This document shows, one piece after another, positions 40,291 through 64,000 of a stretch of DNA of 64,000 bases. The position numbers and the translations under genes are program-made. How positions within the stretch are numbered: the stretch's first letter is position 1; every line of letters begins with the position of its first letter. The notes under the pieces were generated by a model. It was not told where the DNA came from. It saw only the letters and a list, made by a program, of their open reading frames with translations, and did not search any database. Source of the stretch: an uncultured bacterium (lineage in GTDB: Bacteria > Hydrothermota > Tepidihabitantia > Tepidihabitantales > Tepidihabitantaceae); assembly GCA_964590395.1 (NCBI GenBank), contig CAZPVT010000005.1:116387-180386 (forward strand), read 5' to 3'.

Positions 40291-41487
40291 ATGAAGGTTC
40301 TTTATATCACCACTGCCTATCCCCGCTCAGAAAAAGATATCATCACGCCCTGGTTAGTTGAAACCGTTCAGCTTCTGCAGGGCAAAGCCATTGACATCAC
40401 GGTGTTTACTTCTGCCTATCAGGGGCTGGGCGACCAGACGGTGATGGGAACAAGGGTCAAACGGTTTCGATATTTTTTTGCCCGCTGGGAGAAATTAACC
40501 CATGATGAAACCGCAATCGATCGGGTGCAGAAGGGATTTTTAAACAAAATTCTGGCGTTCTGTTATCTGCTTTTGGGCACGATGGCAGTCTGGCGGTTAT
40601 GCAGGAAAGAGCATTTTGACATAATCCATGTTCACTGGCCATTGCCCCACTTCCTGTTTGGTTATGTGGCAGGGCGGGTCTGTGCCGCGCCGATTGTAAT
40701 CAGTTTTCACGGTGCGGAGTTGATGGCGGTGCGCAAGAAATTTCGGCTCCTGCGGCCGTTTCTGCGCTGGGCGATTGCCCGCGCAGACCGGGTAACTGCC
40801 AATTCCACCCACACGGTTCGGGCAATTCAAGAGATTTTTAATCGGTCCGTGGATATTGTTCCGTTTGGGGCAGCGGTTTCTACAAAGGGGGGGCAGGTAC
40901 GGGTGGAAATGGCTGCAGAGAAATCTATTCTTTTTGTTGGCAGGCTGGTTGAGCGGAAAGGGGTAAGGTATCTGATTGAGGCAGCCGCGCAGATCGCTTC
41001 CCGGTATAACATTCGGGTTGATATTGTGGGTGATGGTCCGGAGTTGCCGAAACTGATGCGGTTGACCGCTGAGAAGGGGCTTGGCGCGGTGGTCAGATTC
41101 CACGGCCGGGTTTCAGCTGAGGAACTGCCCCGGTTCTATGAGAACTGTGATATATTTGTTCTGCCCGCGGTTATCGACAGTAAGGGTGATACCGAAGGGT
41201 TAGGAGTGGTGTTGATTGAGGCGATGACCTATAAGAAACCGGTGATAGCATCAGCAGTTGGTGGGATTACCGATCTGGTGATAGATGGTCAGACTGGACT
41301 TGCAGTTCCTCCCGGTGATGGAGATGCACTTGTCCGGGCGATCGTTCAATTAATTGAAAAGCCAGAACTGGCGCAGCGGCTCAGCCAGCAGGGTTATGAG
41401 CATATCTTAGCCAATTACTCCTGGGGGGTAATAATTGACCGGCTTATAACTCTATATCAGGAAGTTTATTCCAGCCATTCAGAATAA
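40291..41487 (+). CDS. Glycosyltransferase family 1 (GT4-type, GT-B fold)
   Basis: The C-terminal half carries the EGLGVVLIEAM...KPVIAS...GGI..LV motif characteristic of GT4 enzymes. Confidence 0.8.
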   Translation: MKVLYITTAYPRSEKDIITPWLVETVQLLQGKAIDITVFTSAYQGLGDQTVMGTRVKRFRYFFARWEKLTHDETAIDRVQKGFLNKILAFCYLLLGTMAVWRLCRKEHFDIIHVHWPLPHFLFGYVAGRVCAAPIVISFHGAELMAVRKKFRLLRPFLRWAIARADRVTANSTHTVRAIQEIFNRSVDIVPFGAAVSTKGGQVRVEMAAEKSILFVGRLVERKGVRYLIEAAAQIASRYNIRVDIVGDGPELPKLMRLTAEKGLGAVVRFHGRVSAEELPRFYENCDIFVLPAVIDSKGDTEGLGVVLIEAMTYKKPVIASAVGGITDLVIDGQTGLAVPPGDGDALVRAIVQLIEKPELAQRLSQQGYEHILANYSWGVIIDRLITLYQEVYSSHSE

Positions 41488-42443
41488 TGACCGAGCAGAC
41501 GGTTAGTCCGAGAAAGAAACTGAGCTGGCTCCGTTATACCGTGGGCACGGTCGTCGTTGTTGTTTCATTTTATTTTCTGCTCAGCCGGCTCTGGCGAGAC
41601 TGGCACCAGATTCCGTTTTTCCAACTGCGTTTTACTCCCCATTGGCTGGTGCTGTCCTATCTGGTGCTGTTATTGTTTCATCTTCCACTCGGGGCTTACG
41701 GCTGGAAGTTGATCCTTTGGGGATTGGGCGAAAGGATAAGTTTTTCGCGGGCGCTGGGGATTATCACCGTTACCCAATTGGGTAAGTACGTACCGGGAAA
41801 AATCTGGTTTACTGTGGGACGGATGTCGTTTGCTCAACAGGACGGGGTTGCCGAAGCGAAAAGTCTGGTGAGCGTAATTATCGAGACCGGATTACTCCTA
41901 TTGTCAGCGATCTTTCTTTTTGCGGTTGCGGTATTTCTCCTGCCTCGGGCAATAGTGCCCAAAGGTCTGTATTATTTATTCCTATTAGCACCTTTTACCC
42001 TGTTTGTCATCTATCCACCCGTCCTTAACCGGATTTTAAAACCAACTTTGCGGTTTTTTAAACAGCCCGAGTTTACACTCAACCTTTCTTATTCTCGTCT
42101 GCTGGGAATTTTTTCATTATACATTACTGACTGGCTGGTTCAGAGTATCGGTTGTTTTTTGCTGATCAACTCTTTTTATCCCTTGGGCATTGCCCGGCTG
42201 CCGATGCTCGTCGGTGGTTATTCCATCTCTTGGATTTTGGGGTTCATCGTGCTAATCGCGCCGGCTGGTTTGGGCATCCGGGAAGGGATATATACCTATA
42301 TTTTAAAACTGGTAATGCCGGAGTCAGTTGCTATTATATCAGCGTTGCTCACAAGAATCTGGATGAGCAGCGCGGAACTGGTAATGGCACTTTTCTGCCT
42401 GCCGCTTTTGCGGCGGAGTAAACCTGAGATTATCAGGAGGTAA
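41487..42443 (+). CDS. Flippase-like / lysylphosphatidylglycerol-synthase TM-region family membrane protein (UPF0104)
   Basis: 318 aa, ~8 TM. GKYVPGKIW and PAGLGIREG motifs. Confidence 0.55.
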   Translation: MTEQTVSPRKKLSWLRYTVGTVVVVVSFYFLLSRLWRDWHQIPFFQLRFTPHWLVLSYLVLLLFHLPLGAYGWKLILWGLGERISFSRALGIITVTQLGKYVPGKIWFTVGRMSFAQQDGVAEAKSLVSVIIETGLLLLSAIFLFAVAVFLLPRAIVPKGLYYLFLLAPFTLFVIYPPVLNRILKPTLRFFKQPEFTLNLSYSRLLGIFSLYITDWLVQSIGCFLLINSFYPLGIARLPMLVGGYSISWILGFIVLIAPAGLGIREGIYTYILKLVMPESVAIISALLTRIWMSSAELVMALFCLPLLRRSKPEIIRR

Positions 42444-42445
42444 TT

Positions 42446-44893
42446 ATGGCAAAGAAGCGAGCAGCACCCCGGGCAAAAACGCCGGCAGTAAAAAGACCGG
42501 AGCAGGTGATACCAGAGGAGAAACTGCACCGTTATGCGGTAGCCGGTTTTTTTGTTCTGCCCCTGATTTTTTGGGGTAGGTTACTGTTTGGGCCTGTGAT
42601 GACGTATGGGACCGATTTTCTCGGTGCTGGGGGGTATGCGGCGCGTCAATTTATGGCTGAGTACATCCGCAACCATTTAACCATTGCGCTATGGCAGCCC
42701 CAGATACTGTGTGGTCAACCGACGGTAGCGGCATTTTTTGGCGATCTTTTTTATCCAACGATATTTTTACGTCTCTTTTTGCCCGTTCATATCGTTTGGG
42801 CGTGGACATTCTATATTCATACGGTACTGGCCGGGCTCGGTACCTATCTTTTTATCAGGGAACTGAAAGTTTCGACACTTGCAGGCGTTGTGGCTGGTGT
42901 TGCCTATATGTTTTCCGGTTCGCTGATGACCCTTGCCTTTGCCGGCCACGATGGCCGGTTAATCGGTTCCGCTTTGATGCCCTGGACGGTTTTTCTTTTG
43001 ATCCGGGGGTTAAATCGGCGACAACTGTTCTGGTTTGTGCTTACAGGTTTAGTGCTCGGTCTACAACTTCTGTCCGGACATATCCAGAAGGTATATTATA
43101 CCGTCTTGATACTGGTCGCCTGGTTTATCTTTAACTGGGTTCGGATGCTCAGGCAGGAGAAGGAGATAAAATCATCAGCAGTTAAATTGATAGGTTACTT
43201 TGGGCTTAGCGGACTCTTTGCGATTGGTATCGCGGCAATTCAGTATCTACCGATTTACGCCAATCTGCCTTACAGTGCCCGGGGCGCAGAGCGGGGTTAT
43301 GAGTTTGCTACCTCCTGGTCGATGCCGATCGCTGAGATATTTGATCTATTAACGCCGAAGTTCTCTGGTGGACTGGAGAACTACTGGAGTAAGAATCCGT
43401 TCAAACTGCACAGCGAGTATTTAGGGATTCTGCCTCTGCTTTTTGCCTTCATTGCCTTAATCCGATGCCACAAGACCCCCATCGTTAGATTTTTCTCTTT
43501 CACGGTGCTTTTTGCTGTATTAATGGCCTGGGGTGGAAACACACCTTTTTATCGTCTGCCTTATTACCTGCTGCCCGGAATCAGCAAGTTTCGCGGTCCA
43601 GGGATGATATTCTTTGTTGCCGGTTTTGCGCTTGCGGTACTGGCAGGCTATGGGGTTAATTACTGTTTTGACCGTTCAAACACCGATGGGTTGAAGAAAA
43701 CATTGCGGGCGCTACTTTACGCCGGGGCCGGGCTTTTTCTGTTACTACTGTTCTTTCTTGTTGCCCGTGATGCAGCGAGCTCGATTTTTAATCCGGGCAC
43801 GCGTCTTGTCCAGTTTGAAGCCAACTATCCCTCATTGACCTCAGGAATGGTATTTGCGGTATTCCTCTGGCTGATTGGCATCGGCATCGTCTATCTACCG
43901 CGTGCCGGTGTTAGTCCACAACTTGTGGTGGTGACAACCGTGCTGATAATGACGCTTGATGTTGGTTTAGCATTGAAACTCTGGGACAATCAGCGTGGTT
44001 ATATCCGTTCGGTTCCGCCACCGCAGGAGTATTTTGCTCCGGATGAAGTGGTGCGTTTTTTAAGGCCGGATAGTTCCTTTTATCGGGTTCTACCCTTAAA
44101 TTATGAACGCTCGGATCAGGGAATATTGTGGTTACACGGTATCTATTCTACCGGTGGGCAGATACCGAATCCTTTGCAGAGTTATCAGGATTTCATCGGT
44201 GCGGGGAAAAGCGTGCTCTTTCAGGCAAACAATCTGCTAAATTCCAATTTTATGAATTTACTGAATGTGAAATATGTTATTACCTACAACCTGCCAAGCG
44301 ACATCTCCCGGTTTGACCCCCAGAGCCAGCAGGTGATCAATCAGTTACGACTCTACTTCAGTCAGCCCCAGTTTGAGCAGGTATTTGCCGGAACTTACTA
44401 CGCGGTGTATTACAACCGGCAGTTTCTACCTCGTGCCTTTATTGTCCATAATTACGAGGTCGTTAGAGATAAGGATGAACTTTTGTCCCGATTGATGCAA
44501 CCGGATTTTGATCCCAGCCAGACCGCACTACTTTACACTAAACCAGAGTTTGAACCCGGTATGCTGGTGGATACGGTTGCCCGGTGTTCGATTGTATATT
44601 ATGATGCCAATCGGATTAAACTGTCTGCCCGGCTGTTAGCACCCGGACTGTTGATTCTTAGTGAGAACTATCATCCGGACTGGCAGGTTAAGATCAATGG
44701 CAAAAGTGCGCAGCTGTTACCCGCATTTCACACCCTGCGGGCAGTTGTTCTGGAGGTGGGCGAACATCAGGTGGAGTTTACTTATTATCCTAAATACTAC
44801 CGGCTGGGTATGCTTTTGACCCTGCTTACCGCATTGGCGATCCCCCTTTTGTCATTGCGAGGCACAAAGTACCATGGCAATCTCACAGCGTAA
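42446..44893 (+). CDS. YfhO-family polytopic membrane protein (surface polymer glycosylation)
   Basis: 815 aa. Many N-terminal TM helices plus a C-terminal extracytoplasmic domain. Sits in a GT1 + flippase-like cluster. Confidence 0.65.
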   Translation: MAKKRAAPRAKTPAVKRPEQVIPEEKLHRYAVAGFFVLPLIFWGRLLFGPVMTYGTDFLGAGGYAARQFMAEYIRNHLTIALWQPQILCGQPTVAAFFGDLFYPTIFLRLFLPVHIVWAWTFYIHTVLAGLGTYLFIRELKVSTLAGVVAGVAYMFSGSLMTLAFAGHDGRLIGSALMPWTVFLLIRGLNRRQLFWFVLTGLVLGLQLLSGHIQKVYYTVLILVAWFIFNWVRMLRQEKEIKSSAVKLIGYFGLSGLFAIGIAAIQYLPIYANLPYSARGAERGYEFATSWSMPIAEIFDLLTPKFSGGLENYWSKNPFKLHSEYLGILPLLFAFIALIRCHKTPIVRFFSFTVLFAVLMAWGGNTPFYRLPYYLLPGISKFRGPGMIFFVAGFALAVLAGYGVNYCFDRSNTDGLKKTLRALLYAGAGLFLLLLFFLVARDAASSIFNPGTRLVQFEANYPSLTSGMVFAVFLWLIGIGIVYLPRAGVSPQLVVVTTVLIMTLDVGLALKLWDNQRGYIRSVPPPQEYFAPDEVVRFLRPDSSFYRVLPLNYERSDQGILWLHGIYSTGGQIPNPLQSYQDFIGAGKSVLFQANNLLNSNFMNLLNVKYVITYNLPSDISRFDPQSQQVINQLRLYFSQPQFEQVFAGTYYAVYYNRQFLPRAFIVHNYEVVRDKDELLSRLMQPDFDPSQTALLYTKPEFEPGMLVDTVARCSIVYYDANRIKLSARLLAPGLLILSENYHPDWQVKINGKSAQLLPAFHTLRAVVLEVGEHQVEFTYYPKYYRLGMLLTLLTALAIPLLSLRGTKYHGNLTA

Positions 44894-52133: not shown

Positions 52134-53171
52134 ATGAAAATAGCGTTGAAAATCTTATTGCTCGGTTTGGTGGTTTGTTCCTTTTCCTATGGTGCGTTCA
52201 GCAAGGTGGCGACAACCGGGGCGAATTTTCTGAAAATCGGCGTGGGCAGGGCGTCAGGAATGGGCGATGCGTTTACCGCGCTGGCTGATGATGCCTCGGC
52301 TGCCTATTTTAACCCGGCAGGTCTGGCGAATGTCAATCGGCAGGCACAGGTCAATCATGCGAAATGGTTTGCGGATATCAACCACGACTTCATGGTGGTT
52401 GTGTTACCGGTAACCAATTTCGGCACGGTCGCATTTACTGCTACTGCGCTGACGATGGGTGACATTGAGGTAACAACGGTTGATGACCCGAAGACGCCGG
52501 CGCGCGAGGATGAGGGAACCGGGCTGAAGATCGGTGCTAATGATCTGGCATTCGGTATCAGTTACGCCCGGATTATCACGGACAAGTTGTCATTCGGGCT
52601 TTCGGTCAAGGCGGTTCAACAGACCATCTGGGATATGGGGGCTTCTGCAGTGGGTTTTGATATGGGGCTTTTCTACAACACCGGGTTCAAGTCGCTAAGG
52701 CTGGGCGCTGCTGTCACCAACTACGGAACTCAACTGGCTTTTTCCGGGCCGCATCTGGATTACAACTTTAACTGGTCCGATTCCGGACCGAAGCAACTGC
52801 AGGGCTCTTACAAAACCACACCCTCACCACTACCGACCGCATTCCGTTTCGGGGTGGCGATGGATTTGGTGAACACCGGCGCCAATCGGCTTACCACCGC
52901 AGTTGACATTGTGCATCCTTCAGACATCAATGAGACGGTCAATATCGGCCTGGAATACGGTTTAGCCAATATGTTCTTTTTGCGCGGGGGCTATATCCTG
53001 AATGTTGACCAGAACTACCACCAGAAACTCGGCGATCTCACCGGACTCTGTGCCGGACTGGGCATAAAAGGCAAACCGACTCCTGTGCTGGAGATAGGGC
53101 TTGATTATGCGTTCCGGTATTATCAATACTTGAAACCCACACACCGGTTGATGTTGACCGTTGGCTTTTAA
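52134..53171 (+). CDS. PorV/PorQ-family (FadL-like) outer-membrane beta-barrel protein
   Basis: Signal peptide, then GANFLKIGVGRASGMGDAFTALADDASAAYFNPAGLA, the hallmark N-terminal motif of PorV/FadL-like barrels. Ends in aromatic GF. Flanked by two CTD-bearing genes. Confidence 0.55.
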   Translation: MKIALKILLLGLVVCSFSYGAFSKVATTGANFLKIGVGRASGMGDAFTALADDASAAYFNPAGLANVNRQAQVNHAKWFADINHDFMVVVLPVTNFGTVAFTATALTMGDIEVTTVDDPKTPAREDEGTGLKIGANDLAFGISYARIITDKLSFGLSVKAVQQTIWDMGASAVGFDMGLFYNTGFKSLRLGAAVTNYGTQLAFSGPHLDYNFNWSDSGPKQLQGSYKTTPSPLPTAFRFGVAMDLVNTGANRLTTAVDIVHPSDINETVNIGLEYGLANMFFLRGGYILNVDQNYHQKLGDLTGLCAGLGIKGKPTPVLEIGLDYAFRYYQYLKPTHRLMLTVGF

Positions 53172-55335
53172 GGACAAGGGGTTCGCTCTTAGAGCGGTTA
53201 AACTGACAGGGGGATGGTTAACCATCCCCCTGTTGCTATTATCTGCCAGGGCTATAGGTGCTAAATGGACTGTGGGTATTTACATCGGCGCGGATAACGG
53301 AATGAGCGAACAGGCTTATGTTGACATTGCGGAGATGATGAAAGTTGGCTCAAGTAGCGAGGTCAATATCGTGGTGCAGGTTGATAATGCCAGCCGGGAC
53401 ACCAATCCGAACTGCCGGCGTTATTTAATCCTTAAAGATCAGCGGGAACTGCTTGCAGACCTTGGTGAACTGGATATGGCAGACACCGCGGTGCTTGCGG
53501 ATTTCATTGCGTTTCTGGGTAGAAATTTTCCTGCCCGTAACTACTTTCTTATCATCTGGGACCACGGCAACGGCTGGCGTGCAGGTTATGGTCCACAGCG
53601 GGCGGTGGTGATTGATGAGTCCCATAGTCATATGATGGGGGTGGCAGGTGGCGAGTTAAACCGGGCACTGGCAAACGGAGTTAAACGGCTGGGCAAGAAA
53701 CTGAAGATTTTAGGTTTTGATGCCTGTTTGATGGGGTGCATTGAGGTGGCAACTGAGGTGATGGACTACTGTGAATACCTCCTTGCCTCGGAGGCGATGG
53801 TGGAGTGGAATGGGTTACCCTATGATGCCATATTCAGAAGGTTAACCACCCAGCCTGACATACCGGTTGAACAGTTACTTTCCGGTATCTGTGAGGACTA
53901 TGTTAACGCATATCCGGACCGGGCGGTCTGTCTTTCGGCGATCAGCACCGCACAACTGAAACAGGTGATAAAAACCCTCTCTGTTGTGCTTAAAGACAGT
54001 ATTGGTTCAGATGATAGACGTGTTCAAACTGCCCGTCTTGGTGTGCAGACATTTCCGCAGGATCTGGTTAGCCAGCCCAAAGTCAACGATGAGATGATCG
54101 ATCTTATTCATTTCTGGCAGCTGGTAGGGGGTAATGGCACCGAGAAACTCTGTCAGGCTCTTGAAGGGTTGGTTGTGGCAAATGCGGTGGGGGGGGCGGA
54201 TTTTAACAATGCGCAGGGTCTTGCGGTCTGGTTTCCTTTTCGGTACCTTGGTTTCAAATCCAAGGCAAAGGAGTATCAGCAACTGGTTTTCTCAGACAGT
54301 GTGCCCTGGCTTAGTTTCTTAAACAACTATTTCGGTTTAGACGATGCCAAACCTGAAACACCCCGGATTATCAAACACCAGACCGGAAACCGGGGAGATG
54401 TCCGGCTCTGGTGGCACCGGGTTAAGGACTGGTCACCGGTTACCTACCATCTTTATCAGGCGACCGCGCCCGCATCGATTTTACAGGACCACTGCGACAG
54501 TTTTGCCTCTTGGCAGTCACAGGGCTGGGCCGTTTCAACCCGGTATAGCCGTTCACCCGGGAGTTCGTTTTTCTCGGGTTCAGCGAGCAACTTAACTCAC
54601 CTCCTGACACTAAAATCCGGAGTATCACTGCCTGCAGGTGGTTTGCTTGCCTTTTATGCCTATTACTCAACCCAGGAGACCGAAGACTCCTTGGGTAACA
54701 TTACCCGTGATGCCTGCTATATTGAAACCTCAACTGATCGCCAAAACTGGCAGATACTGGACTCAATTTACGGTTCTGGTGAATCCTGGCAGGAGTTTTC
54801 CTATCTTCTGGTTCCAGCCGAGAATGTTTATATCCGGTTCAGATACACCACCGACCAGACCATAAACCGGCTCGGTGTTTTTATTGACGACATCCGGATT
54901 GAACGGTTTTTGACCCTGCGCAAGGCGCTGGTTACCACCGACACCACATCCTACCTCTTCAACCTTGCCCGGGAGACCACCGGTTATTACTTTTTCCTTA
55001 TGGCGCAGGATGCATCTGGCAACTACTCCAATCTCAGCTCCTATTACCCGGTAAAGATCAAAACCCTTGCCGAACCCTACACCCGACCCGCGCCATTTTC
55101 CGGGCAATGTCAACTTATCCTGGACTTTCCGGCAGGTGAAACTCCGGATGTCTACATCTACACATTGAGCGGCGCCCTGGTCAAAAAATTCTCAAAGGTC
55201 ACTAACCGGATGATTGACTGGGACGGCAAAAACGAATATGGTAGAGACCTGGCTGATGGGGTCTATTTAGTTTTAGTCCGGGGTAAAAACTTCAAAAAAA
55301 TCGGCAAAATCGCCCGGGTGGGGGTAAAAGGATAA
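53161..55335 (+). CDS. Clostripain-family (C11) cysteine peptidase with a T9SS C-terminal sorting domain
   Basis: IYIGADNG..., IIWDHGNGW (His) and GFDACLMG (Cys) catalytic-dyad motifs. C-terminal CTD (DVYIYTLSGALV...DGVYLVLV...KIGKIARV). Confidence 0.7.
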   Translation: MAFKDKGFALRAVKLTGGWLTIPLLLLSARAIGAKWTVGIYIGADNGMSEQAYVDIAEMMKVGSSSEVNIVVQVDNASRDTNPNCRRYLILKDQRELLADLGELDMADTAVLADFIAFLGRNFPARNYFLIIWDHGNGWRAGYGPQRAVVIDESHSHMMGVAGGELNRALANGVKRLGKKLKILGFDACLMGCIEVATEVMDYCEYLLASEAMVEWNGLPYDAIFRRLTTQPDIPVEQLLSGICEDYVNAYPDRAVCLSAISTAQLKQVIKTLSVVLKDSIGSDDRRVQTARLGVQTFPQDLVSQPKVNDEMIDLIHFWQLVGGNGTEKLCQALEGLVVANAVGGADFNNAQGLAVWFPFRYLGFKSKAKEYQQLVFSDSVPWLSFLNNYFGLDDAKPETPRIIKHQTGNRGDVRLWWHRVKDWSPVTYHLYQATAPASILQDHCDSFASWQSQGWAVSTRYSRSPGSSFFSGSASNLTHLLTLKSGVSLPAGGLLAFYAYYSTQETEDSLGNITRDACYIETSTDRQNWQILDSIYGSGESWQEFSYLLVPAENVYIRFRYTTDQTINRLGVFIDDIRIERFLTLRKALVTTDTTSYLFNLARETTGYYFFLMAQDASGNYSNLSSYYPVKIKTLAEPYTRPAPFSGQCQLILDFPAGETPDVYIYTLSGALVKKFSKVTNRMIDWDGKNEYGRDLADGVYLVLVRGKNFKKIGKIARVGVKG

Positions 55336-55406: not shown

Positions 55407-56672
55407 CTATGCTTCTGCCGCACATAAAAATTGAATTACATCGGCTAGATATTCAACTTTATTTTTCCCGGGCGGTAATAACCTGTTTTCAAATATATAA
55501 ATATATTTGTCAAGCAAGTAATTTACAATTGTAGTGAGTTCAACTTCTCCGCACTCCGAATTTATTACGGAATCGTACATTAGTCTTAAACTTTTATCTT
55601 CTTTCAATAAGCCTAAAAAACTTATGGTGAAATTCTTTTTATATTTAAGTAACATACTCCTTTCGTCAATAGTTATTAGTTGAGATAACCAAATATCATC
55701 GTATTTCAATAAAAGCAAATCGGATACTGAAAAACTTTTCCTAAAAAGCTTTAATGTAATATCGTTACCGTATAACGCTCCTACTCTTACTATTAATTTA
55801 GAATAAGACAAACCGATCTCCATTTGTAAGTTCTCGGTGTCTTTACTAATTATTTTCATTGTTGGACTTTGTTCTATTATATTTTGTAGGTATTCAAAGC
55901 CTTCCCGGCTTGAAGAGTAAAATCCGTTGGTTTTATCGCCTTGAATTGTCGCGGGATTGTCACCTGTATCAAACAAAACACCGATATATATTTCAAAGTT
56001 TTTAATTCCAAACTTCTCAAGTAATTCTGTTAGAGAAAATTCCTCATGGTTTCTTCTGAATAATTTTATATTGGAGTTAAAATACTCTACGAAAATTCCA
56101 AATTTTTCCGATGTCCAGATTTCTCGTCTGCCAGCAGCCCCGCCGGTATCTACTCTATTTTTAAGTTCAACTAATACAATCGTTTTTTCGTCTTGTATAA
56201 TACTTCCTACATCAGTGGTTACATCCTTGTTACCTAACCAATCCCATTCAATCGTCCTTAAGATTTTCTTTTCTGTGGAGGACAACCCTTGCTGAGTAAA
56301 AATACCCTTCTTCTTGTGGATAGATGGGTATGTTAACCAAAATGGAAGTTTGCTAAGTTCTATATCCAGAGAACAATTTTCAAAGGAGGAGGCTATTTTC
56401 TTTTCAATATACCTTCCACGACCACCCTGACTGTGATGATAATAAGATGTAACACCTAGTAAAGCTTCGTAATATTCTTTGATTTCAGGTGGAGCACTTA
56501 ATAGTCCATCGTAAACTTTGGCTACCGGATCAAAATCCTTTGCATTAATATTCATACAAAGCTCTTTGAAATTTATTAATATGTTTTTATAAGGTTCATA
56601 AAGTAATATTTGTCCAAGATCTAATTTCCCTTTTTCTTTTATACACAGAAGGTTTTTCTTTTTAATAATCAC
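55407..56672 (-). CDS. Hypothetical protein (candidate restriction endonuclease partner of the upstream methyltransferase)
   Basis: 421-aa ORF in ~33% GC DNA. Its start lies 1 nt after the MTase stop. Possible PD-(D/E)xK-like IIQDEK..LVELK segment (weak). Confidence 0.4.
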   Translation of the reverse strand: MIIKKKNLLCIKEKGKLDLGQILLYEPYKNILINFKELCMNINAKDFDPVAKVYDGLLSAPPEIKEYYEALLGVTSYYHHSQGGRGRYIEKKIASSFENCSLDIELSKLPFWLTYPSIHKKKGIFTQQGLSSTEKKILRTIEWDWLGNKDVTTDVGSIIQDEKTIVLVELKNRVDTGGAAGRREIWTSEKFGIFVEYFNSNIKLFRRNHEEFSLTELLEKFGIKNFEIYIGVLFDTGDNPATIQGDKTNGFYSSSREGFEYLQNIIEQSPTMKIISKDTENLQMEIGLSYSKLIVRVGALYGNDITLKLFRKSFSVSDLLLLKYDDIWLSQLITIDERSMLLKYKKNFTISFLGLLKEDKSLRLMYDSVINSECGEVELTTIVNYLLDKYIYIFENRLLPPGKNKVEYLADVIQFLCAAEA

Positions 56673-56673
56673 A

Positions 56674-58005
56674 TTATTTCACTTTCTCGCAAATTATTAT
56701 ACTTTCTCCTCTGATTGCTCTATTCCGAGCACCTAATAGGGGATTAAATATCAATCTTTCAAATTTAAATCCCACTTCTTCACAAAACCTTTTAGTTGTC
56801 AAGGTAGTGGGAATTTTTTTCCCATTTACGGTACTGTCTCCAATTATAATAGCCAGCTTGCCGCCAGGCTTTAATGCCCAGAAGATATTTTTTATTAATT
56901 CTTTCAAGTCTTCATAATACATCGCTACTTTTGGAGGCAGTCCTTTATAAGATATTTCTGATTTCCCATTTTTCATACCCAGATATCTTGACTCGATTTT
57001 TTTCATATCTATGCCCAAATAGTCATAAGCAATTTTGTCTTTCCCAACATAATCTATAGAAAAATAGTAAGGCGGACTTGTAATGCAGGCGTCAAATTTC
57101 CCATCGAACTCCCTCATTTTCTTGAGTTCAAGGACATCGCCTTCAATGATTTTGGCAGGTTTAAAGTTAAGGCGATATTTTTCTTTTATTTCTATCGTTT
57201 TTTTTGAACATTGTTTTATATAGTTTAATTTTTCAATAAAGAGCCCCAATTTTCCTTTTCTATTATACCTTGAAGTTCTCATAAAGGCATCGACTGTATC
57301 AAAATATACTGCGAGCATTAATTTTTGAATTAATGGATCGGGGCATCCCCAGTTTTTATTTTCTATGGCTTGTAAGATATCTTGGAGTTCTTGTTGAGTA
57401 AAATTCAACTTTTGTTCATCGATAAAAAGCAAATCGTTTTTTAATTCTGATAGAACAATTCCCATCGGGGTAACATCTATGCCAGTACTTTTGATTCCCA
57501 TAAGGGAGGCTTCGTGTGTAGTCGTTCCTGAGCCGTTAAAGGGGTCTAAAAGGAGAGAATCGCTGTTTAATTTAAAGGTATTAATTAAAGTCCTAACTAC
57601 TCGTGGATAGAATTTGCCTTTATATGGATATAGATTATGAAACGCATAGGCATTCGTGTCACCAAATTTATCAACAAAATCTGTGTAAAGAGTTTTTTCC
57701 CCTTTTACTATTTCTAGGTGCGCTACTCTTAACCTTATAAATTCTTCATCGCCCTTAAATCTAACCGTTCGGTTTATTGGGTCAATTTTATATTCTTCAG
57801 TTAACCCACGCAGTTCTAAATCCAAAAGTTCCAGATCTGCAAGGGTTTGCATCCAGAAGCCAAATATTGTGTCACCTTTTTGGGCGACATAGTTTGCAAA
57901 TTCTTGGGAGTAAGCCTCGATTATCTCTTGATAAGACGGAAATTCGTAGGTACCAAACATCGTCATTTGTTTTCCCTGTTTTAATGCTCGAACGTCTTTA
58001 CTCAT
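56674..58005 (-). CDS. DNA amino-methyltransferase (N6-adenine or N4-cytosine), type II R-M-like
   Basis: Motif I LLDPFNGSGTT, then, after a TRD-sized gap, motif IV ITSPPYY. AT-rich. Confidence 0.75.
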   Translation of the reverse strand: MSKDVRALKQGKQMTMFGTYEFPSYQEIIEAYSQEFANYVAQKGDTIFGFWMQTLADLELLDLELRGLTEEYKIDPINRTVRFKGDEEFIRLRVAHLEIVKGEKTLYTDFVDKFGDTNAYAFHNLYPYKGKFYPRVVRTLINTFKLNSDSLLLDPFNGSGTTTHEASLMGIKSTGIDVTPMGIVLSELKNDLLFIDEQKLNFTQQELQDILQAIENKNWGCPDPLIQKLMLAVYFDTVDAFMRTSRYNRKGKLGLFIEKLNYIKQCSKKTIEIKEKYRLNFKPAKIIEGDVLELKKMREFDGKFDACITSPPYYFSIDYVGKDKIAYDYLGIDMKKIESRYLGMKNGKSEISYKGLPPKVAMYYEDLKELIKNIFWALKPGGKLAIIIGDSTVNGKKIPTTLTTKRFCEEVGFKFERLIFNPLLGARNRAIRGESIIICEKVK

Positions 58006-58094: not shown

Positions 58095-58215
58095 AATTTA
58101 TAGTTGCACCCCTCCAAGTCAACTTTTTACCGGCGAGTGTTGCGGTTCCGGCACTGCCAGGCGCCGGTATCGGGGATAGGTTTTTTGAAACAGACCAGAG
58201 GGCAATTTGGGCATA
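58095..58215. repeat. Copy 2 of a triplicated palindrome + promoter-like element
   Basis: CCTCCAAGTCAA...CCGGCActgccaggcGCCGG-TATCGGGGATAGGTTTTTTGAAA. Shares the 5' part and core with 62995-63125. ~90 nt upstream of the MTase start. Confidence 0.6.
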
Positions 58216-58734
58216 TGAACTGGCAATGATATTTTCCACATCATTAGTCCCGCTTAGTCCTTTTTTCTCTCTGCTCTTTTATACCATTAATTATCCAGAT
58301 GGTTAGAGCGATAATTATGCAAATAATTACGAAAGCCACAACCAGATAGTAAACTGTAAGTGTTATTAATGGCAGTGTCGCTTAAACTAATATTGCCACC
58401 GGCAGAAGAATAAGTATCGCTAATACTTTAGCAACCAAACGAACTTGATGCTTGTTTCGAAACTTCCATAGTCCAATGGCAGTAAAAATACTAATGATAG
58501 CAATACTTAATAGGCTAATTAACATCCAGGCCTTTATACCTTCGCCATATATAAGCGAGATAAACAGGAGATATAGTGGTATTATTGTCTCCAGTATTAA
58601 AAGCCTAATTATATTACGAATTGATGCCAGCTCTTTCTTAATATTATATACCGCCTTTTATGCTATTTCCGATAACGTCTTGCGGATAAAAGAATTTGCC
58701 GAAGGTAATGTTGGGCGAAGCCTCTTATCCGCTG

Positions 58735-59664
58735 TTAGGCGGAGGAGCACTCTCTTTCCCAGCTTTCCTGTATCGGGCGATAAATTTCTTCTATTCTTTC
58801 CTTCGTTAGCAAATTTTCTTTTATTATAACCTCATATACATGAACCTGAAAATCGCTCCACCTAATCGGATGAGCAATTTGGCGTCTTGGTGTAAGCTCT
58901 TTTAACTCATAGTCTTTTAGTTCCAACCCTTTGGATAAAAATGCTTTTAAGTCCTCTGTGTCAAAATGAATTTCGTTATCAGCAATTAAATACCTTGTAT
59001 TTAGAACCGAAAAGTAGGGATAAATATTTGTAACACTTTTCCTATTTCCACCCTTGCCACATCCTTCTCGCACTTTCACCATATAAGCGACATTTATTCC
59101 GTGTCTAAGAAGAACCTCTTGAAAGAAGTTTATATTTTCAAATAGAAAATAAATCACAGGTTTTTCAATCTTTCCCAACTTGTTTGAGGTTATCTCAATG
59201 TCTAATAAATAAATTTCCGGAGTTTTTGGAGCCTCTTCTTTATCAACAACAGATTCCTCATTAACTTCATATTTTACTAAAGAAGCGTCGATACATAAAG
59301 GATAAATCTTTTTCGCTACTACATTTGTTTTGCCGTCGTTAAACACTTCGCCTTTCTTCAGTTTTACCATTTTTTTATTATAATCTGTATGTATAAAAAG
59401 ATCCGGGGCAGGAATTCCATAGTCTGTTACAATATTGATATTACCCCTGATACCCCTGATATTATTTTCATCTATCTCGGACAATTCCAAAATGTCGCGA
59501 TAGTCATTACCAGCACTTGGATACCATAAGATTTCTGGATTATCGCCGACTGTGCTAAATAAATCGTTGAGTCGTTTTTGTGACGCTTGATTTCTCGCTT
59601 TTAATAGTTGTTTAATAGATCTTACTTCCTTATAGCCTTTCTTCGGATCTTTTCTTGTTGACAT
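58735..59664 (-). CDS. Hypothetical protein (309 aa), AT-rich, flanked by copies of the repeated element
   Basis: Long ORF in low-GC DNA. No recognisable motifs. Confidence 0.4.
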   Translation of the reverse strand: MSTRKDPKKGYKEVRSIKQLLKARNQASQKRLNDLFSTVGDNPEILWYPSAGNDYRDILELSEIDENNIRGIRGNINIVTDYGIPAPDLFIHTDYNKKMVKLKKGEVFNDGKTNVVAKKIYPLCIDASLVKYEVNEESVVDKEEAPKTPEIYLLDIEITSNKLGKIEKPVIYFLFENINFFQEVLLRHGINVAYMVKVREGCGKGGNRKSVTNIYPYFSVLNTRYLIADNEIHFDTEDLKAFLSKGLELKDYELKELTPRRQIAHPIRWSDFQVHVYEVIIKENLLTKERIEEIYRPIQESWERECSSA

Positions 59665-59780
59665 ATTACCTCCTTGTTTTAGAGCGATTTTTTATCTTTT
59701 GTGTGCGGTCAAGGTCCAATAAGGACATCGATAAAATTCATAACAATAACAATAAATCTGTCGAGGTCAAGTTTTTTCTT

Positions 59781-59885
59781 GCAGTTTGTTTTCATCCGGC
59801 AGTGTTAGGTGCCGGTAGCGGGGATAGGTCTTTTCAAATAGTTGGAGAATAGTCCGGGCAAGTTCTGGGTAGGGGACAGGTAAGG
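59781..59885. repeat. Copy 3 of the triplicated element
   Basis: CCGGCAgtgttaggTGCCGG-TAGCGGGGATAGGTCTTTTCAAATAGTTGGAGAATAGTCCGGGCAAGTTC. Shares the core and 3' part with 63040-63110. Confidence 0.6.
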
Positions 59886-60088
59886 GACGGTTTTAAATTC
59901 CAAGGATTATCTGCAGGGGTTCTGTTTTACGCTTTCTTTTTTAAACCTGTGAGAGTTAAATTCTTTTGTTTAAAGGTGTCCAAGAGGTCACCTCGACAGG
60001 TTATCTATATCTATTTTCCCCTCATATTTGCCGGCAAGGATTCAAAAGAAATTTCGTCAATGATGTTTGAGGATAAGTTCGGACATAA

Positions 60089-61579
60089 TTAAGTTAACAT
60101 TAAAAACTTTAATGGGACCTTTATAATAGAGTCATTTATTAATTCCAGTCTGCCACTTCCCAGGACTAATCCATATTTACTTTTGACTTTTCTCATCGTA
60201 TTTTCAACTTGCCTGATTTCCTCTTTATTAAAACCAAGTTCAATGACGACATTGCTCCTGTTCTTCAGGGTTAAAACAAAATCTGCGCCGCACTCGGCAA
60301 TATCATAAGACAGACTGTAAGCCAACGCTTTCTTTAAATCATTCTCAAAAATTAAGGTAAAATAATCTTCCAGTTTTTTGCCTTCGATGCCCGGGGGGAA
60401 ACTGTTGTCTAAAATGGCACCGCGAAGAGACGGGGTTATAAAGAGATACTTTGGAGTTTTTCTGGTGGTGCCATAAGTTCTACCGTAAGCCTTTACCTTA
60501 ATTAAAACACCACTCATAACTAAAACATCCAGCAGGGCTGATAATGTTCTGATATTATCAATTTTTAAGGTCTTTAATAGTTTTTCATAACTGATCAGAT
60601 CAGAGTTAGCCAGCAGGTAAAGCAGGTCGTTGATTTTGCTGATCGTTTCGGTCTTAAACCTTTTCAGGGTTAAAATGTCTTTCGTAATTATTCCGTTGAT
60701 CACATACTTTATCCGTTCTGCGATTTCAACCTGGTTTTGCAAGCCAACCACAAATGGAAATCCGCCGTTTTTGAAGAATTCATCTTCGCAACCGGGTGAT
60801 AAACTCAAAAAAAATCTTTTCACTGCTGATTCTTTATCTTTAAGTTCGTTAAAAACCTCTTTGGCATTCCGGGAGTTGAAAATGATTTCCTTCAGTTCTT
60901 CTGATAGATTTTCAACAGGATAAATATTATGTTTTAAGATTAGATATTCGCTGAATTTCATCGGGAAAAGTTCTTTTACTGTTGCTCTTCTCATTAAATC
61001 TGCGCCTATTTTTATGTTAATTGCTGAAGAACCGGTGGCGATGACCAGTAAATTTTTATGCCCCTTGGTATGGTCAAACAACACTTTTAAAAACAGATTC
61101 CATTTTTCATCAAAGTGGACCTCATCAAGTAAAAGGATGATCTTTTTATCTAAAGTTACAAAATTGAAATTGTTTACCTTCTCGAAAAATTGAAAGAATT
61201 CACTTAAACCGATCTGTTCAAAATGAAACTTGCTGATATCAAAATAAAAACGATAATCAAGTTTGTTTAAATTTTTTAGTAACTCTGCATCCTCAGGATT
61301 ATCGGGATTTAAAAACTTTTCGAGTTTATAAATCTGCATCAACAGAGTTGTTTTACCCACCCCTCTGATGCCGGGTAATAGAATAATTTTTTCAAACTCG
61401 TTTATTTTATCAGTGAGAAACTCGTTTATTTTCTTTTTGAAAAAGGAGAAAATGTGTCTTGTTGGCTTGAGATTTTTATTGTCATCGTAAAGATACCCTT
61501 CGTTTAATTGGGGAAGGATTTTAAGCCAGTTCTTATAAAAATTTTCCAATTTTTCCTCGTTCATCAGTCGGTATTCCAT
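60089..61579 (-). CDS. AAA-family ATPase (AAA_14 + DUF4143-type)
   Basis: Walker A GIRGVGKTT. Walker B ILLLDEVHF. Winged-helix-like C-terminal region. 496 aa. AT-rich. Confidence 0.7.
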   Translation of the reverse strand: MEYRLMNEEKLENFYKNWLKILPQLNEGYLYDDNKNLKPTRHIFSFFKKKINEFLTDKINEFEKIILLPGIRGVGKTTLLMQIYKLEKFLNPDNPEDAELLKNLNKLDYRFYFDISKFHFEQIGLSEFFQFFEKVNNFNFVTLDKKIILLLDEVHFDEKWNLFLKVLFDHTKGHKNLLVIATGSSAINIKIGADLMRRATVKELFPMKFSEYLILKHNIYPVENLSEELKEIIFNSRNAKEVFNELKDKESAVKRFFLSLSPGCEDEFFKNGGFPFVVGLQNQVEIAERIKYVINGIITKDILTLKRFKTETISKINDLLYLLANSDLISYEKLLKTLKIDNIRTLSALLDVLVMSGVLIKVKAYGRTYGTTRKTPKYLFITPSLRGAILDNSFPPGIEGKKLEDYFTLIFENDLKKALAYSLSYDIAECGADFVLTLKNRSNVVIELGFNKEEIRQVENTMRKVKSKYGLVLGSGRLELINDSIIKVPLKFLMLT

Positions 61580-61987
61580 TACAAACTAAACACGCATTCA
61601 GATTGTATCACAATACAAACTGAATGTCAAATAAAGACCCTCTTGTCACCTCTGGTGGTGTAAATAGCAACTGGTTAAAAACAGATAACCCTGGATGAGT
61701 ATTTTGGATAACCATCGTCGCCCGATTTGTCAAAATGCGCCAAATACATAATTTCACCACCAGATTAAAGGTTTTATTATTTTATAATTCACCTCCTTTA
61801 AATTGACCTTTTCGATATCTTTTGCTTTGCTATCTTCGCATTGCTTAAGTTTAAGGCATTTAAAGAAACCACCTCCACCATCAATTATGGCACCGACAAA
61901 TAGAGCATCTAACACGTTATAAAAATTTTCTTCTTATAATTATGATAATAAGTCCCCCTTAAATTCAATCTTTTATCGGCAGGTTTT

Positions 61988-62980
61988 TTATTGGGTTTCG
62001 TGCTGTTCGAAGTATTCAAAGGCGTCGATCAGGTCAAGGTAGATGCCGTCAAAGCCAGCAGTAAGGATTTTTTTGACATAGGAGTTGTCGTTGCCGTAGA
62101 TGATCTTTTGCCATTGCGGGTCCCAGTATTTTACTCGATAGTTGCCGGGCCAGTCCGGGTTTTGTTCAAGGAGCCAGTCGGGCGGGTTTTGTTGCCATTC
62201 AGGACGCCAGTAGTAGCGGTAGTCCTCGGCTTCGCCGATACTGAGGTAGGACAGGATTAGCCGTCTGCCACCGTTTGCCTTGGTTTTTAAGCGGGCAATT
62301 TCGTCCGCGGTTAAAGGGAGTGTGTCATAAAACAGATCGATGATCAGGAGGTCGTAGTTGGTTGCGCTGAGAGCGTTCAGGAAGGCGGTTTTGTCCCTGA
62401 AGGCACCGTGGTTAATCAGACAGAGGAAGTTCTGTGCCTGTTTTAGGGTGGTGATGTCGCTGGCGTTGACCCGGTGGGGTTCGGGGGGATAAGCGGGTAT
62501 GTTGTCCAGTTCCCGGTGGTCAGCCACAAAGGAGATGTAGCCGTGGCGGGTGTTCTGAAGATTGGAGTTGTCAACAAAGGTGCGGGTTGAGCAGTAGTCA
62601 ATGACCAGCACCTCAATGCCGCAACTTTCCGCAAGGTTTAGAAATGGGATAATCCGGTTGCGGACTGATTCCGGCGTTGGGATGTTGTCTCCATCGTATC
62701 CGTAGAATAGGTCCTCTCTGCCCAGTCCGTGAATCGCTTTAATGTAGGCAATTGCCGGTGTGCCGGTATCCGTTCCATCGATTGTGAGCAGTTCCTGGCC
62801 ATTCTGGGGGATGATGAGGAAATCGGGGTTTATTTTTTGGGTGTAGGCGCTGATTTTCTGGACAAACTGGCGCATATCTTCGCGGCAGTCCCTTTGGTTT
62901 GGTTGGAGATGCTGACACCCTGGGGACATTAAGGCGGTTAATGTCAGCGGGATCGTAATTAGAAGGAGGTTTATTTTCAT
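61988..62980 (-). CDS. GH114-like (endo-alpha-1,4-polygalactosaminidase-type) TIM-barrel glycoside hydrolase, secreted lipoprotein
   Basis: Lipoprotein signal (LMSPGC). GFDGIYLDLID motif typical of GH114/PelA-like hydrolases. Confidence 0.5.
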   Translation of the reverse strand: MKINLLLITIPLTLTALMSPGCQHLQPNQRDCREDMRQFVQKISAYTQKINPDFLIIPQNGQELLTIDGTDTGTPAIAYIKAIHGLGREDLFYGYDGDNIPTPESVRNRIIPFLNLAESCGIEVLVIDYCSTRTFVDNSNLQNTRHGYISFVADHRELDNIPAYPPEPHRVNASDITTLKQAQNFLCLINHGAFRDKTAFLNALSATNYDLLIIDLFYDTLPLTADEIARLKTKANGGRRLILSYLSIGEAEDYRYYWRPEWQQNPPDWLLEQNPDWPGNYRVKYWDPQWQKIIYGNDNSYVKKILTAGFDGIYLDLIDAFEYFEQHETQ

Positions 62981-62994
62981 AACCAGTTTTGTAA

Positions 62995-63125
62995 CTTAAT
63001 ACTCCTCCAAGTCAAGCTTTGTTCTCGGGCTGTGCTTTGTCCGGCACTGCCATATGCCGGTATCGGGGATAGGTTTTTTCAAAGAGTTGGAGGATGGTGC
63101 GGGCAAGTTCCGGATAGGGGGCAGT
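62995..63125. repeat. Copy 1 (most complete) of the triplicated element; it overlaps the 3' end of the HTH gene
   Basis: CTCCTCCAAGTCAAG...CCGGCActgccataTGCCGG-TATCGGGGATAGGTTTTTTCAAAGAGTTGGAGGATGGTGCGGGCAAGTTCCGG. Confidence 0.6.
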
Positions 63126-64000
63126 TGAAAGGAGGCGGTTTAACTCCGGTTTTTGTTTTTCCGGGTCAGATTCAAGTTGTAAGGCGGTATTGGTTAGTTG
63201 ATGGAGAAGTTCAATTGCCCAGAGTCTTATCTGTGGGTCAAGGTTTTCGGTTTTTAGTTCCCGGTTGATCTCTCCGAAGATCACCGCGGCGGTGCCGGCA
63301 ATCCGTTTTTTCTTTTCAGTTTCTGCCCGGTGTTTTTCCAGTATCAGCCTTTTTTCTGCCCGGATAGGTGCGGGTAAGGGGCGGTTTTTTAGTTCCGAGA
63401 TTATCCAGAGGAGGTCCTGGTCCGGGTTGAGGAGTCCCTGTTTTTCAATCTCTGCGTAAAGGTTTTTGATCTCCTGTTCAATTGTCTCGATGCCGGCTGA
63501 AGGCAGGTTGAGTTCTTTTATTCGGTCGCGCTGTTTTAGGAGGAGTCGGGTGCGGCGGTTCTGGTCGTCGCGGGTGGAGAGGTAGGTTTGGAAGATTTTT
63601 CTGCCGTAGTGGCAGAGTTGGGTGAGTTTTTCCTGGTCAATCTGTTCTGCCTCAGGTGCGGTGATTATCCGGTAAAGGGTGTCTTCAAGGATGGTGCGGA
63701 GGATGCGGTTCTGGAGGAGTTGTTTTATGCGGCCAGGTCGCCGGTTTAAACTCTTTTTGGGCAGGGTTTCGGTTGGTTGTGTAAGATCCGGAGGAGTTTC
63801 GGTTTTCGGGGTGATGGTGGCAGAGCGGTTTAAGAGCTCAATTATTTCGTTGAAGGTGGCATTGCACGCGGTGAGGTAGTTGGTAATGGTGATGATTGAT
63901 GGGTTTTTGATTTTACCGGTTTCAAGGCGGTGAAGCAAAACATAGTATCCCGGTGCCTCGGGCGTAATTTTTTGTGCCAGTTGTTTTAATGTGAGGTTTG
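63012..64000 (-). CDS. Helix-turn-helix-domain protein, 5'-truncated by the window edge
   Basis: The N-terminal region (LKQLAQKI....LLHRLETGKIKNPSIITITNYLTACN) resembles an XRE-type HTH. The ORF stays open to position 64000. Confidence 0.4.
   Translation of the reverse strand, partial: NLTLKQLAQKITPEAPGYYVLLHRLETGKIKNPSIITITNYLTACNATFNEIIELLNRSATITPKTETPPDLTQPTETLPKKSLNRRPGRIKQLLQNRILRTILEDTLYRIITAPEAEQIDQEKLTQLCHYGRKIFQTYLSTRDDQNRRTRLLLKQRDRIKELNLPSAGIETIEQEIKNLYAEIEKQGLLNPDQDLLWIISELKNRPLPAPIRAEKRLILEKHRAETEKKKRIAGTAAVIFGEINRELKTENLDPQIRLWAIELLHQLTNTALQLESDPEKQKPELNRLLSTAPYPELARTILQLFEKTYPRYRHMAVPDKAQPENKA

Follow-up and report, generated by a model that had tools for sequence, protein, structure and literature searches.

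Behind the gene for an XRE-family regulator, in a 64,000-nucleotide stretch of DNA from an uncultured bacterium of the Hydrothermota (contig CAZPVT010000005.1; the whole stretch is called the window), a repeat built around a 47-nt block occurs three times, once within the regulator gene itself and twice downstream of it, among genes for a GH114 family glycoside hydrolase, an AAA_14-type ATPase, a DUF7663 protein and a type II restriction-modification pair. Our findings identify the copies as homologous ends of that one gene, and we read them as scars of serial, homology-anchored cassette insertion at an integrase-free slot, each cassette having arrived with its own gene end and promoter. We put the probability of this reading at about 0.65, and scars, rather than a new regulatory element, are what the repeats most likely represent. 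The source contig (L008 among the loci compared below) is matched by two sister contigs from the same strain (99.97% identity), which carry the same array.

The repeats are ends of one regulator gene

The 47-nt block is present in direct orientation at 58147-58193 (copy A), 59795-59841 (copy B) and 63040-63086 (copy C), with identities of 83-89%. Its core CGGGGATAGGTYTTTT has three exact occurrences against 0.18 expected, and the palindrome CCGGCA-N8-TGCCGG (6-8-6) is found at exactly three sites, all in the copies, against 0.17 expected. The three-copy repeat is real, non-random and far above chance, as a first-pass annotation made from the letters of the window alone had maintained; that annotation, however, allowed for a spacer of 8-9 nt, while we find 8 nt in all three copies, with arms that are perfect in two of them and carry one mismatch in the 58.1-kb copy. 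Copies B and C have 85 nt in common (59795-59879 / 63040-63124; 84%), copies A and C additionally share ACYCCTCCAAGTCAA (58108-58127 / 63001-63020), and the longest stretch identical across all three is AACCTATCCCCG (12 nt). Some of the earlier bookkeeping has to be corrected accordingly: its copy numbering was inconsistent, the overlap with the helix-turn-helix (HTH) gene belonging to the copy at 62995-63125, CCTCCAAGTCAA pairs the 58.1-kb with the 63.0-kb copy, and the extra stretch, of about 38 nt, pairs the 59.8-kb with the 63.0-kb copy. Every copy does lie upstream of a minus-strand unit, as had been noted, at a measured 31-113 nt from the next gene start. Perfect 6-8-6 inverted repeats are frequent in the window (24 found, about 16 expected) and the palindrome is notable only through being copied. 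An nhmmer profile of the element detects a single copy in each related locus and, in the window, adds nothing to the three but a marginal match (copy D, see below); a fourth match to the core, at 8543-8558 with one mismatch, sits in unrelated sequence and is attributed to chance.

What the copies encode is more telling. The 63-kb copy is spanned by a single long open reading frame (ORF), which is on the minus strand, enters from beyond 64000, terminates in a TGA at 63012-63014 and represents the 3' 989 nt (63012..64000) of the regulator gene, which in full specifies 353 amino acids (aa) and has its 5' end beyond the window. The core GGGGATAGGTTTTTT together with the palindrome is the antisense of codons for LFEKTYPRYRxxxxP(D/E), the conserved C-terminus of the regulator; LFEKTYPRYR is invariant among orthologues of 46-91% identity, including homologues at 91, 57 and 48%, and a looser ending, [FY]x[RK][WYF][RK]xxLxP, is visible in distant members of the wider family (115 cluster representatives at E < 1e-10). 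The palindrome arms themselves are the codons taC-CGG-CAn and nTG-CCG-Gan, for a conserved Tyr-Arg-His and a conserved Val/Leu-Pro-Asp. Read in one frame, the minus strands of the copies end in APYPELARTILQLFEKTYPRYRHMAVPDKAQPENKA, VPYPELARTILQLFEKTYPRYRHLTLPDENKLQEKT and LFQKTYPRYRRLAVPEPQHSPVKS, each followed by a TGA that stands in the same register, exactly 8 codons after P(D/E), in 3/3 copies. Because frame, stop register and C-terminal motif are retained, the copies are 3'-terminus homologues of one XRE-family regulator gene; only the 63.0-kb copy belongs to the live gene and those at 59.8 kb and 58.1 kb are relic gene ends. In contrast to the first-pass annotation, which took the reading frame to be lost outside the live gene and argued from this for selection on DNA or RNA, frame and stop position are kept in all three, so that the premise was wrong and the core encodes an invariant peptide motif.

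All copies are on the minus strand, and each is made up of 16-35 terminal codons, 8 variable tail codons, the stop and a promoter-like element with its -35 box across that stop. Copy C, the live gene end (63040..63124), encodes PYPELARTILQLFEKTYPRYRHMAVPD, with the palindrome at 63041-63060 and a tail of 8 variable codons, KAQPENKA (63015-63038). Copy B (59767..59968) comprises a core at 59795-59879 (VPYPELARTILQLFEKTYPRYRHLTLPD), the tail ENKLQEKT with its TGA (59767-59794) and decayed upstream remains (59880-59968) that match the regulator codons QDLLWIISELKNRPLP. Copy A (58095..58193) consists of the block at 58147-58193 (LFQKTYPRYRRLAVPE) and the tail PQHSPVKS with its TGA (58119-58146), followed by a promoter-like stretch that reaches down to 58095.

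An RNA hairpin, which had been offered as an alternative and might act as attenuator, stabiliser or terminator of convergent transcription, is extremely unlikely to account for these features. Although a 6-bp GC-rich stem is possible in every window copy and the plus strand adds a weak second stem and a T run after the stem, folding is no better than that of shuffled sequences (z from +0.98 to -2.9 on both strands of all copies and two orthologues, with one copy on one strand below -2). Moreover, compensatory changes are absent and the stem is down to 4 bp in one lineage (L005), a terminator scan makes no call, and Rfam at E <= 1 has no family for the element, its only match being a spurious snoRNA elsewhere.

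For annotation, the lesson is that a palindrome and core conserved ahead of several operons may turn out to be the end of a gene in fossil form. A 41-aa ORF at 58119-58244 on the minus strand (MMWKISLPVHMPKLPSGLFQKTYPRYRRLAVPEPQHSPVKS) exists only because relic A retains frame and stop, and short ORFs of this kind should not be annotated as genes.

The copies differ in allelic origin

The closest other genome, L001, has a regulator that is 91% identical in aa and a single copy of the element; its order is regulator, one element copy, 1.1 kb of DNA and then the same convergent Peptidase_C11 gene that borders the slot in the window. In blastn comparisons the window matches L001 along the regulator from 64000 to 63040 (94.7%, ending at the 3' edge of the palindrome) and, on the peptidase side, from 55332 onward (88.9%). 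Within the slot, 58193-58147 (copy A) returns the 47-nt block and nothing more, and 59878-59632 corresponds to L001 10951-11197 at 90%, a match that takes in the gene end, the intergenic leader and first codons. Since copy B, the leader and these codons align at 90%, copy B is the counterpart, i.e. the orthologue, of the live gene end of L001.

The leader after copy B is common to both genomes up to about the 11 first codons of the next gene. In L001 the 1.1-kb slot holds a frameshifted PD-(D/E)xK-like nuclease gene (11150-11890), and although this gene and the DUF7663 gene of the window are unrelated, they have the same promoter, leader and first ~11 codons. To us, this shared start points to a cassette swap with a breakpoint that would lie inside the ORF.

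Substitution patterns bear on the history of the other copies. Over the 85 nt before the tail, B agrees with L001 against C at 8 sites, with third codon positions making up 7 of these (p = 0.003), C agrees with L001 against B at 6 sites of mixed codon positions, and B agrees with C and not with L001 at 1 site. The 27-nt tails form three unrelated alleles, B and L001 being 1 nt apart and all other pairs 14-16 nt; the C tail (DKAQPENKA), 15/27 nt off the L001/B tail, resembles that of the distant L005 lineage (DKTQPQEKP). Between the regulator genes of the window and L001, mismatches amount to 10.6% over the 113 nt that immediately precede the tail, compared with 3.75% further up (Fisher p = 0.003, with boundaries picked after seeing the data). 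The upstream remains of copy B align with the regulator gene at a score of 46 (shuffles 24 +/- 3), contain an in-frame stop and show a ~250-nt internal deletion that joins the QDLLWIISELKNRPLP-matching stretch to PYPEL at a CCTATCC-type microhomology. Because upstream gene remains with an internal deletion are attached to it, these features indicate that copy B is probably a decaying pseudogene fragment, the displaced end of the resident gene. Taken together, site patterns, tail alleles, the divergence step and the decayed remains of B also indicate that gene end C is likely to be a foreign functional allele, imported with the DNA on the GH114 side. In copy A we see a third allele, of which the 47-nt block, the tail and the promoter are left.

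A possible partial fourth copy, D (61925..61981, minus strand), was picked up by local alignment right after the GH114 stop. Its elements are a right-arm-like TGCCGA, a brief tail, a -35-like TTGAAT at 61963-61968 and a -10-like CATAAT ending at 61939, all without the coding block, and it is most like the tail-promoter region of yet another lineage, L002. The alignment with L002 scores 46 (shuffles 25.7 +/- 4.3, reached by 0/500) and that with copy A scores 40 (again reached by 0/500), and a promoter scan match is present; the nhmmer E-value, however, is only 0.07-0.12, and we regard the statistical case for D as modest.

These data also speak to a simpler scenario, in which insertion on the spot duplicated 47-85 bp of the resident gene end as a long target duplication and the copies diverged afterwards. 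Such insertions are documented for restriction-modification units without mobility genes, with repeats of 46-420 bp (PMC2853133), and L001 has the single repeat copy that this class requires. The copies, though, are only 83-89% identical and have unrelated tails (14-16 of 27 nt differ), B and C have almost no shared derived change (1 site), and the C-specific changes are almost all synonymous, which implies that C diverged as a functional gene elsewhere. Since, in addition, none of the doubly flanked units is a restriction-modification pair, we consider duplication in situ very unlikely.

The slot behind the regulator is hypervariable

Slot content differs in each of five related loci and consists of restriction-modification or defence genes: besides the nuclease gene of L001, there is a type III Mod/Res system in L004 (where the Peptidase_C11 border gene is also present), a related system in L002 that diverges only after 1.4 kb, a type III Mod gene with an AAA_21 ATPase gene in L006, and a longer series in L005 (PLD-SNF2, HepT, an Eco57I-like enzyme, GIY-YIG and NTase/HEPN). 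Restriction-modification types across the slots of these relatives include type III, type II and type IIG, and the slot genes in the other loci are all co-oriented with the regulator. L005 and L006 are 98.7% identical over the regulator segment and different in both flanks. The slot behind the regulator is hypervariable.

Two further observations concern this neighbourhood. The slots of L005 (11130-11528) and L006 (2239-2688) have a 5' type III Mod gene fragment in common at their start and differ from there on, in what looks like another fossil of cassette replacement. A trio of GT4, LPG_synthase_TM and YfhO-like genes lies near the regulator both in the window (40291-44893) and in L005 (36-4590), and relative to this trio the module of regulator plus slot is inverted in L005. 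Relatives of the locus in viral contigs were looked for and none were found.

Proposed insertion anchored on a conserved block

In the model we favour, each unit would have come from the equivalent slot of another lineage and brought that lineage's gene end and promoter along. Addition would have occurred by RecA-type recombination anchored on the ~47-nt block, either through a single crossover of a circularised fragment or by homology-facilitated illegitimate recombination. Each event would have restored an intact regulator gene while displacing the previous end, promoter and cassette downstream, where the coding part would decay and the promoter could still drive its cassette. We infer this recombination route, as we do promoter activity and an order of arrival with the newest unit nearest the gene. 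For the route, two observations count above all: identity in the 47-nt block remains at ~90% between lineages in which the rest of the gene has dropped to ~65%, and two copy limits coincide with the block. Because the block alone is so well kept and these limits match it, homology-anchored insertion is favoured over the other routes. The breakpoints of exchange vary, one lying at the tail and others 135 nt and 333 nt past the stop.

Site-specific recombination deserves a closer look, since the first-pass annotation had suggested att-like marks of successive insertions at the regulator gene. The notion of insertion marks is essentially right; that of a precise att site is not supported. On such an account, the palindrome would be an att/attC-like core at which a recombinase encoded elsewhere (e.g. 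of Xer type) inserts circular cassettes, as in integron arrays or dif modules. Core sites of tyrosine recombinases do resemble the 6-8-6 geometry, homology between L001 and copies C and A breaks off right at the edge of the palindrome, copy D opens at its right-arm-like TGCCGA, the units are co-oriented and each headed by a copy, and synonymous sites around the site are unusually conserved. Against this, no recombinase, integrase or transposase was found in the cassettes, the related loci, ten window ORFs of 281-398 aa, or among the Pfam matches in the 10 kb beyond position 64000 on the regulator side, where the genes upstream of the regulator are for an FAD oxidase, thioredoxin, DUF4097 and CysS; neither is there a tRNA or tmRNA gene in 45-64 kb. 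The regulator as a hidden recombinase is ruled out by its XRE fold, its helical C-terminal part and a weak RRNPP-like resemblance. Exchange partners must share their overlap, yet the spacers of C and B differ at 5/8 positions, and L005 has one degraded arm. On the left, the copies end at different points as well, with 27 nt for A, at least 65 nt plus gene remains for B and none for D. Sites setting C apart from B and L001, 8 in all, start as far as 70 nt upstream of the palindrome, so that the C/B crossover would lie upstream of it, and the breakpoints at 135 and 333 nt past the stop are away from it too. We therefore think of a site-specific mechanism as decidedly unlikely.

Several points nonetheless weigh against homology-anchored insertion as we see it. 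The stack is present in one strain only (three near-identical contigs), while other loci are single-copy even with several stacked defence systems (L005), so that duplication is not a regular by-product of exchange. Neither an intermediate arrangement nor a circular form was observed among the loci compared. The homology breaks of C and A at the palindrome edge would be expected from a site-specific mechanism as well; they are, however, ambiguous, as the protein constraint ends there too. The GH114 gene is host-like in G+C and not an obvious defence gene. To these must be added the modest statistics of copy D, the choice of boundaries for the divergence step with the data in view, and the promoter calls discussed next.

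Promoter-like elements and the operator question

Nearly all copies and orthologues have a TTGAC(T/C) box that overlaps the stop codon or adjoins it, with CTGACC in L001; the box lies 24 nt after the palindrome (8 nt in L002) and is followed, 16-17 nt further, by a -10-like hexamer. Behind copy C (tail and promoter-like element, 62988..63039, minus strand, delimited by sequence and translation), TTGACT at 63010-63015 overlaps the stop and TACAAA at 62988-62993 precedes the GH114 start at 62980. Behind copy B, the promoter-like element and leader (59665..59770, minus strand; from promoter scan, blastn to L001 and sequence comparison) combine TTGACC at 59765-59770, again overlapping the stop, with TATTGT after 16 nt. 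Copy A has TTGACT at 58117-58122, 16 nt and then TAAATT. The -35-like TTGACT box that had been proposed for the minus strand thus holds up, recurring across orthologues at a constant distance. It seems plausible that the gene end contains a promoter directed into the slot, with or without an operator, on calls that are consensus matches without enrichment over shuffled sequences.

Nucleotides at the gene end appear to be conserved, to a modest degree, beyond what the protein asks for. Of the invariant residues in this last stretch, 11/14 use identical codons in three lineages, compared with 46/127 (36%) gene-wide (p = 0.0015, before correcting for scanning); GAA, AAA and ACC, strongly preferred codons, are part of this synonymous conservation. 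It is suggestive of a nucleotide-level constraint or of homogenisation by repeated exchange.

Could the copies, then, be kept as a regulatory module, with the palindrome as the candidate operator of a dimeric HTH factor (which might be the regulator itself), because cassettes need operator and promoter? Such an operator would sit ~60-80 bp ahead of the start of the stop-overlapping promoter. The fixed spacing from palindrome to TTGAC box to -10-like hexamer, the codon identities in the last stretch and the intact arms of relic B next to a spacer with 3 changes would suit this idea, as would an HTH domain that is closest to restriction-modification controller proteins. However, the intact arms of B are statistically non-significant, and the arms in general are fully explained by the conserved Tyr-Arg-His and Val/Leu-Pro-Asp codons, just as GAA, AAA and ACC would be preferred anyway. 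A regulatory module leaves the preserved frame, the stop position and the third-position pattern unexplained where the origin is clearly a gene end, and copy D precedes a gene yet has neither left arm, spacer nor coding block. The palindrome has one arm degraded in L005, and CCGGCA-N8-TGCCGG was not found in the regulator's own promoter region, where an XRE-type operator would usually recur; this region has TTAACCTATAGGTTAA instead. In sum, a regulatory module appears distinctly improbable as the reason for the copies.

That other palindrome, TTAACCTATAGGTTAA, is a perfect 16-bp one at L008 8778-8793, ~10 nt upstream of the regulator ATG and just outside the window, where it sits between TTGCAT (-35-like) and TAAATT (-10-like). 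It is kept as TTAACCTACAGGTTAA in L001 and L004, is absent in L005 and, compared with the palindrome at the 3' end, is the more conventional candidate for an operator of the XRE protein. Further up, ~110 nt before the regulator start (L008 ~8680-8715), a tandem GGGGAT(A/G)nGGTCT is kept in four lineages (with equivalents in L001, L004 and L005); a likeness of this motif to the antisense of the repeat core (12/18) is at chance level by estimate and was discarded.

A bolder version of our model would assign the anchor a function. The last ~47 nt and the stop-overlapping promoter may form a portable docking-and-expression adaptor for defence cassettes, an idea that we hold tentatively and think unlikely on present data. 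Were it true, the adaptor alone would be similar enough for RecA-type pairing between the slots of distant lineages, cassettes could be added and looped out again via the direct repeats without an integrase, and those coming in would be prewired to a promoter, perhaps to an operator, under the resident XRE regulator. This would amount to a capture platform resembling an integron but relying on homology where integrons use a recombinase, and it would explain the unusual conservation of synonymous sites at the gene end.

The cassettes and their recurrence elsewhere

Between the regulator and its far border, the window slot measures ~7.7 kb and is mostly low in G+C (0.31-0.39 for the island at 55.4-62.0 kb, compared with 0.50 in the flanks), while its equivalent in L001 is nearly empty. 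Unit 1 is the GH114 family glycoside hydrolase gene (61988..62980, minus strand; Pfam PF03537; G+C 0.52-0.55, host-like), whose start in the public gene call differs from that of the window ORF. Unit 2, the AAA_14-type ATPase gene (60089..61579, minus strand; Pfam PF13173), is low in G+C and matches PADLOC PDC-S01 at E = 1e-22, which makes its product a candidate defence protein. Unit 3 encodes the DUF7663 protein of 309 aa (58735..59664, minus strand; Pfam PF24699, E = 1e-53) and is followed by small hydrophobic ORFs (58382-58525, minus strand, from the ORF list). Unit 4 is the type II restriction-modification pair (55407..58005, minus strand; Pfam and PADLOC MTase_II), made up of an N6/N4 methyltransferase (56674-58005) and a 421-aa partner (55407-56672), a putative endonuclease for which no Pfam or PADLOC family match was found. 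The far border is the convergent Peptidase_C11 gene (53161..55335, plus strand; Pfam), where homology with L001 resumes at 55332. If copy D is accepted, all four units are headed by a version of the regulator tail-promoter. A literature search on DUF7663 and on XRE regulators of defence islands returned nothing relevant.

Some of these genes recur in unrelated contigs. The methyltransferase and 421-aa pair is found at ~80% nucleotide identity across many phyla, under host labels that include Elusimicrobia, Firestonebacteria, Edwardsbacteria, the archaeon Methanofastidiosa and Thermodesulfovibrionales. We considered whether it carries an A-type gene end in other genomes, which it does not: homology is confined to the coding regions, i.e. 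to the two ORFs (57982-55408). After the DUF7663 gene, a minus-strand stretch at 58631-58762 that contains SANSFIRKTLSEI is 86% identical over 51 nt to L013 2579-2749; in that unrelated contig, the matching stretch comes after a copy of the same restriction-modification pair and has MNT/HepT genes for neighbours. The window stretch has small hydrophobic ORFs close by (58382-58525, and another just downstream), and it may be a small mobile or relic element. In L013, a GH114 gene and then a STAND/NB-ARC ATPase gene (3349-5709) also stand beside the same pair; a conserved two-gene module of GH114 and ATPase was dismissed, the proteins not being orthologous, and the recurrence may be a coincidence or reflect GH114 genes being frequent in such islands.

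Comparison with known systems

Tandem genomic islands at the 3' ends of tRNA/tmRNA or protein genes restore the 3' end upon integration and leave the old end downstream. Our locus is like them in what we read as a restored gene end and in displaced ends that form direct-repeat arrays, and unlike them in having no integrase gene, no common crossover core, variable repeat limits and units of one to two genes. In place of a recombinase beside each island, the cassettes bring GH114, AAA_14 ATPase, DUF7663, methyltransferase and 421-aa protein genes, and in place of an identical crossover core, the copies have at most 12 nt in common, with spacers that differ at up to 5/8 positions. Integron arrays, too, are sets of small co-oriented cassettes bounded by imperfect palindromic repeats, with a fixed platform that supplies the promoter, and these traits are shared here; what differs is that a promoter copy goes with each cassette and that the repeats are relics of coding sequence. 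Whereas attC sites are kept in structure and not in sequence, there is no attC-type structure here (R/L boxes, extrahelical bases), the copies being conserved in sequence and frame, with no GTTRRRY core and a fold no better than that of shuffles; nor is there an intI, as neither the genes upstream of the regulator nor the ten ORFs searched encode recombinases. Since these defining features were looked for and are absent, the locus is neither an integron nor an array of integrase-type islands.

At rhs and cdiA loci, orphan C-terminal and immunity modules pile up downstream after replacement, next to a short conserved anchor. The likeness lies in displaced 3' ends and companion genes stacked downstream of a live gene, again with a short anchor. 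There, however, it is the toxin domain that varies and the anchor is upstream of it, whereas here we have a regulator whose extreme C-terminus is the anchor and behind whose stop the variable cargo lies.

Insertion with long target duplication is the closest described class. It concerns restriction-modification units that lack both transposase and integrase genes (Nobusato et al. 2000; Furuta et al. 2010, PMC2853133), with direct repeats >30 bp that are single-copy in a related genome and sometimes lie over a gene 3' end, with inserts of low G+C and with a proposed cycle of release through the repeats and re-invasion (PMC2853133). In common with this class, our locus has repeats >30 bp (47-85 nt), one copy in L001 and no mobility genes. 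It departs from it in that only one flank of the restriction-modification pair carries a copy, while copies on either side are seen for GH114 plus ATPase, and for DUF7663; in that the copies are diverged alleles (83-89%) with coding-type substitutions rather than near-identical duplicates of the same allele; and in that three to four units are stacked at one gene end.

In its setting, the locus fits the definition of a core defence hotspot. Such hotspots without recognisable mobile elements have been described for P. aeruginosa (cDHS, PMC10250203) and E. coli (hotspot #37, PMC10121019) and treated in theory (PMC5635113). As there, border genes are conserved (regulator and Peptidase_C11 are kept in the window, L001 and L004, with contents all different), defence systems vary between strains, G+C is low and no means of mobilisation have been identified. 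What sets our locus apart is that its internal scars are relic copies of one border gene's end, and that this border gene is an XRE regulator whose stop overlaps a conserved promoter-like element directed into the slot. How hotspots are built without mobile-element genes has been named an open question (PMC10250203), and the E. coli survey, too, reports cases without identifiable means of mobilisation (PMC10121019). By preserving scars of different allelic origin, the locus may hold a record of additive, ordered insertions; these scars point to a short conserved anchor in the regulator gene as the place of exchange, and with it the question of how hotspots are built becomes testable at one concrete locus.

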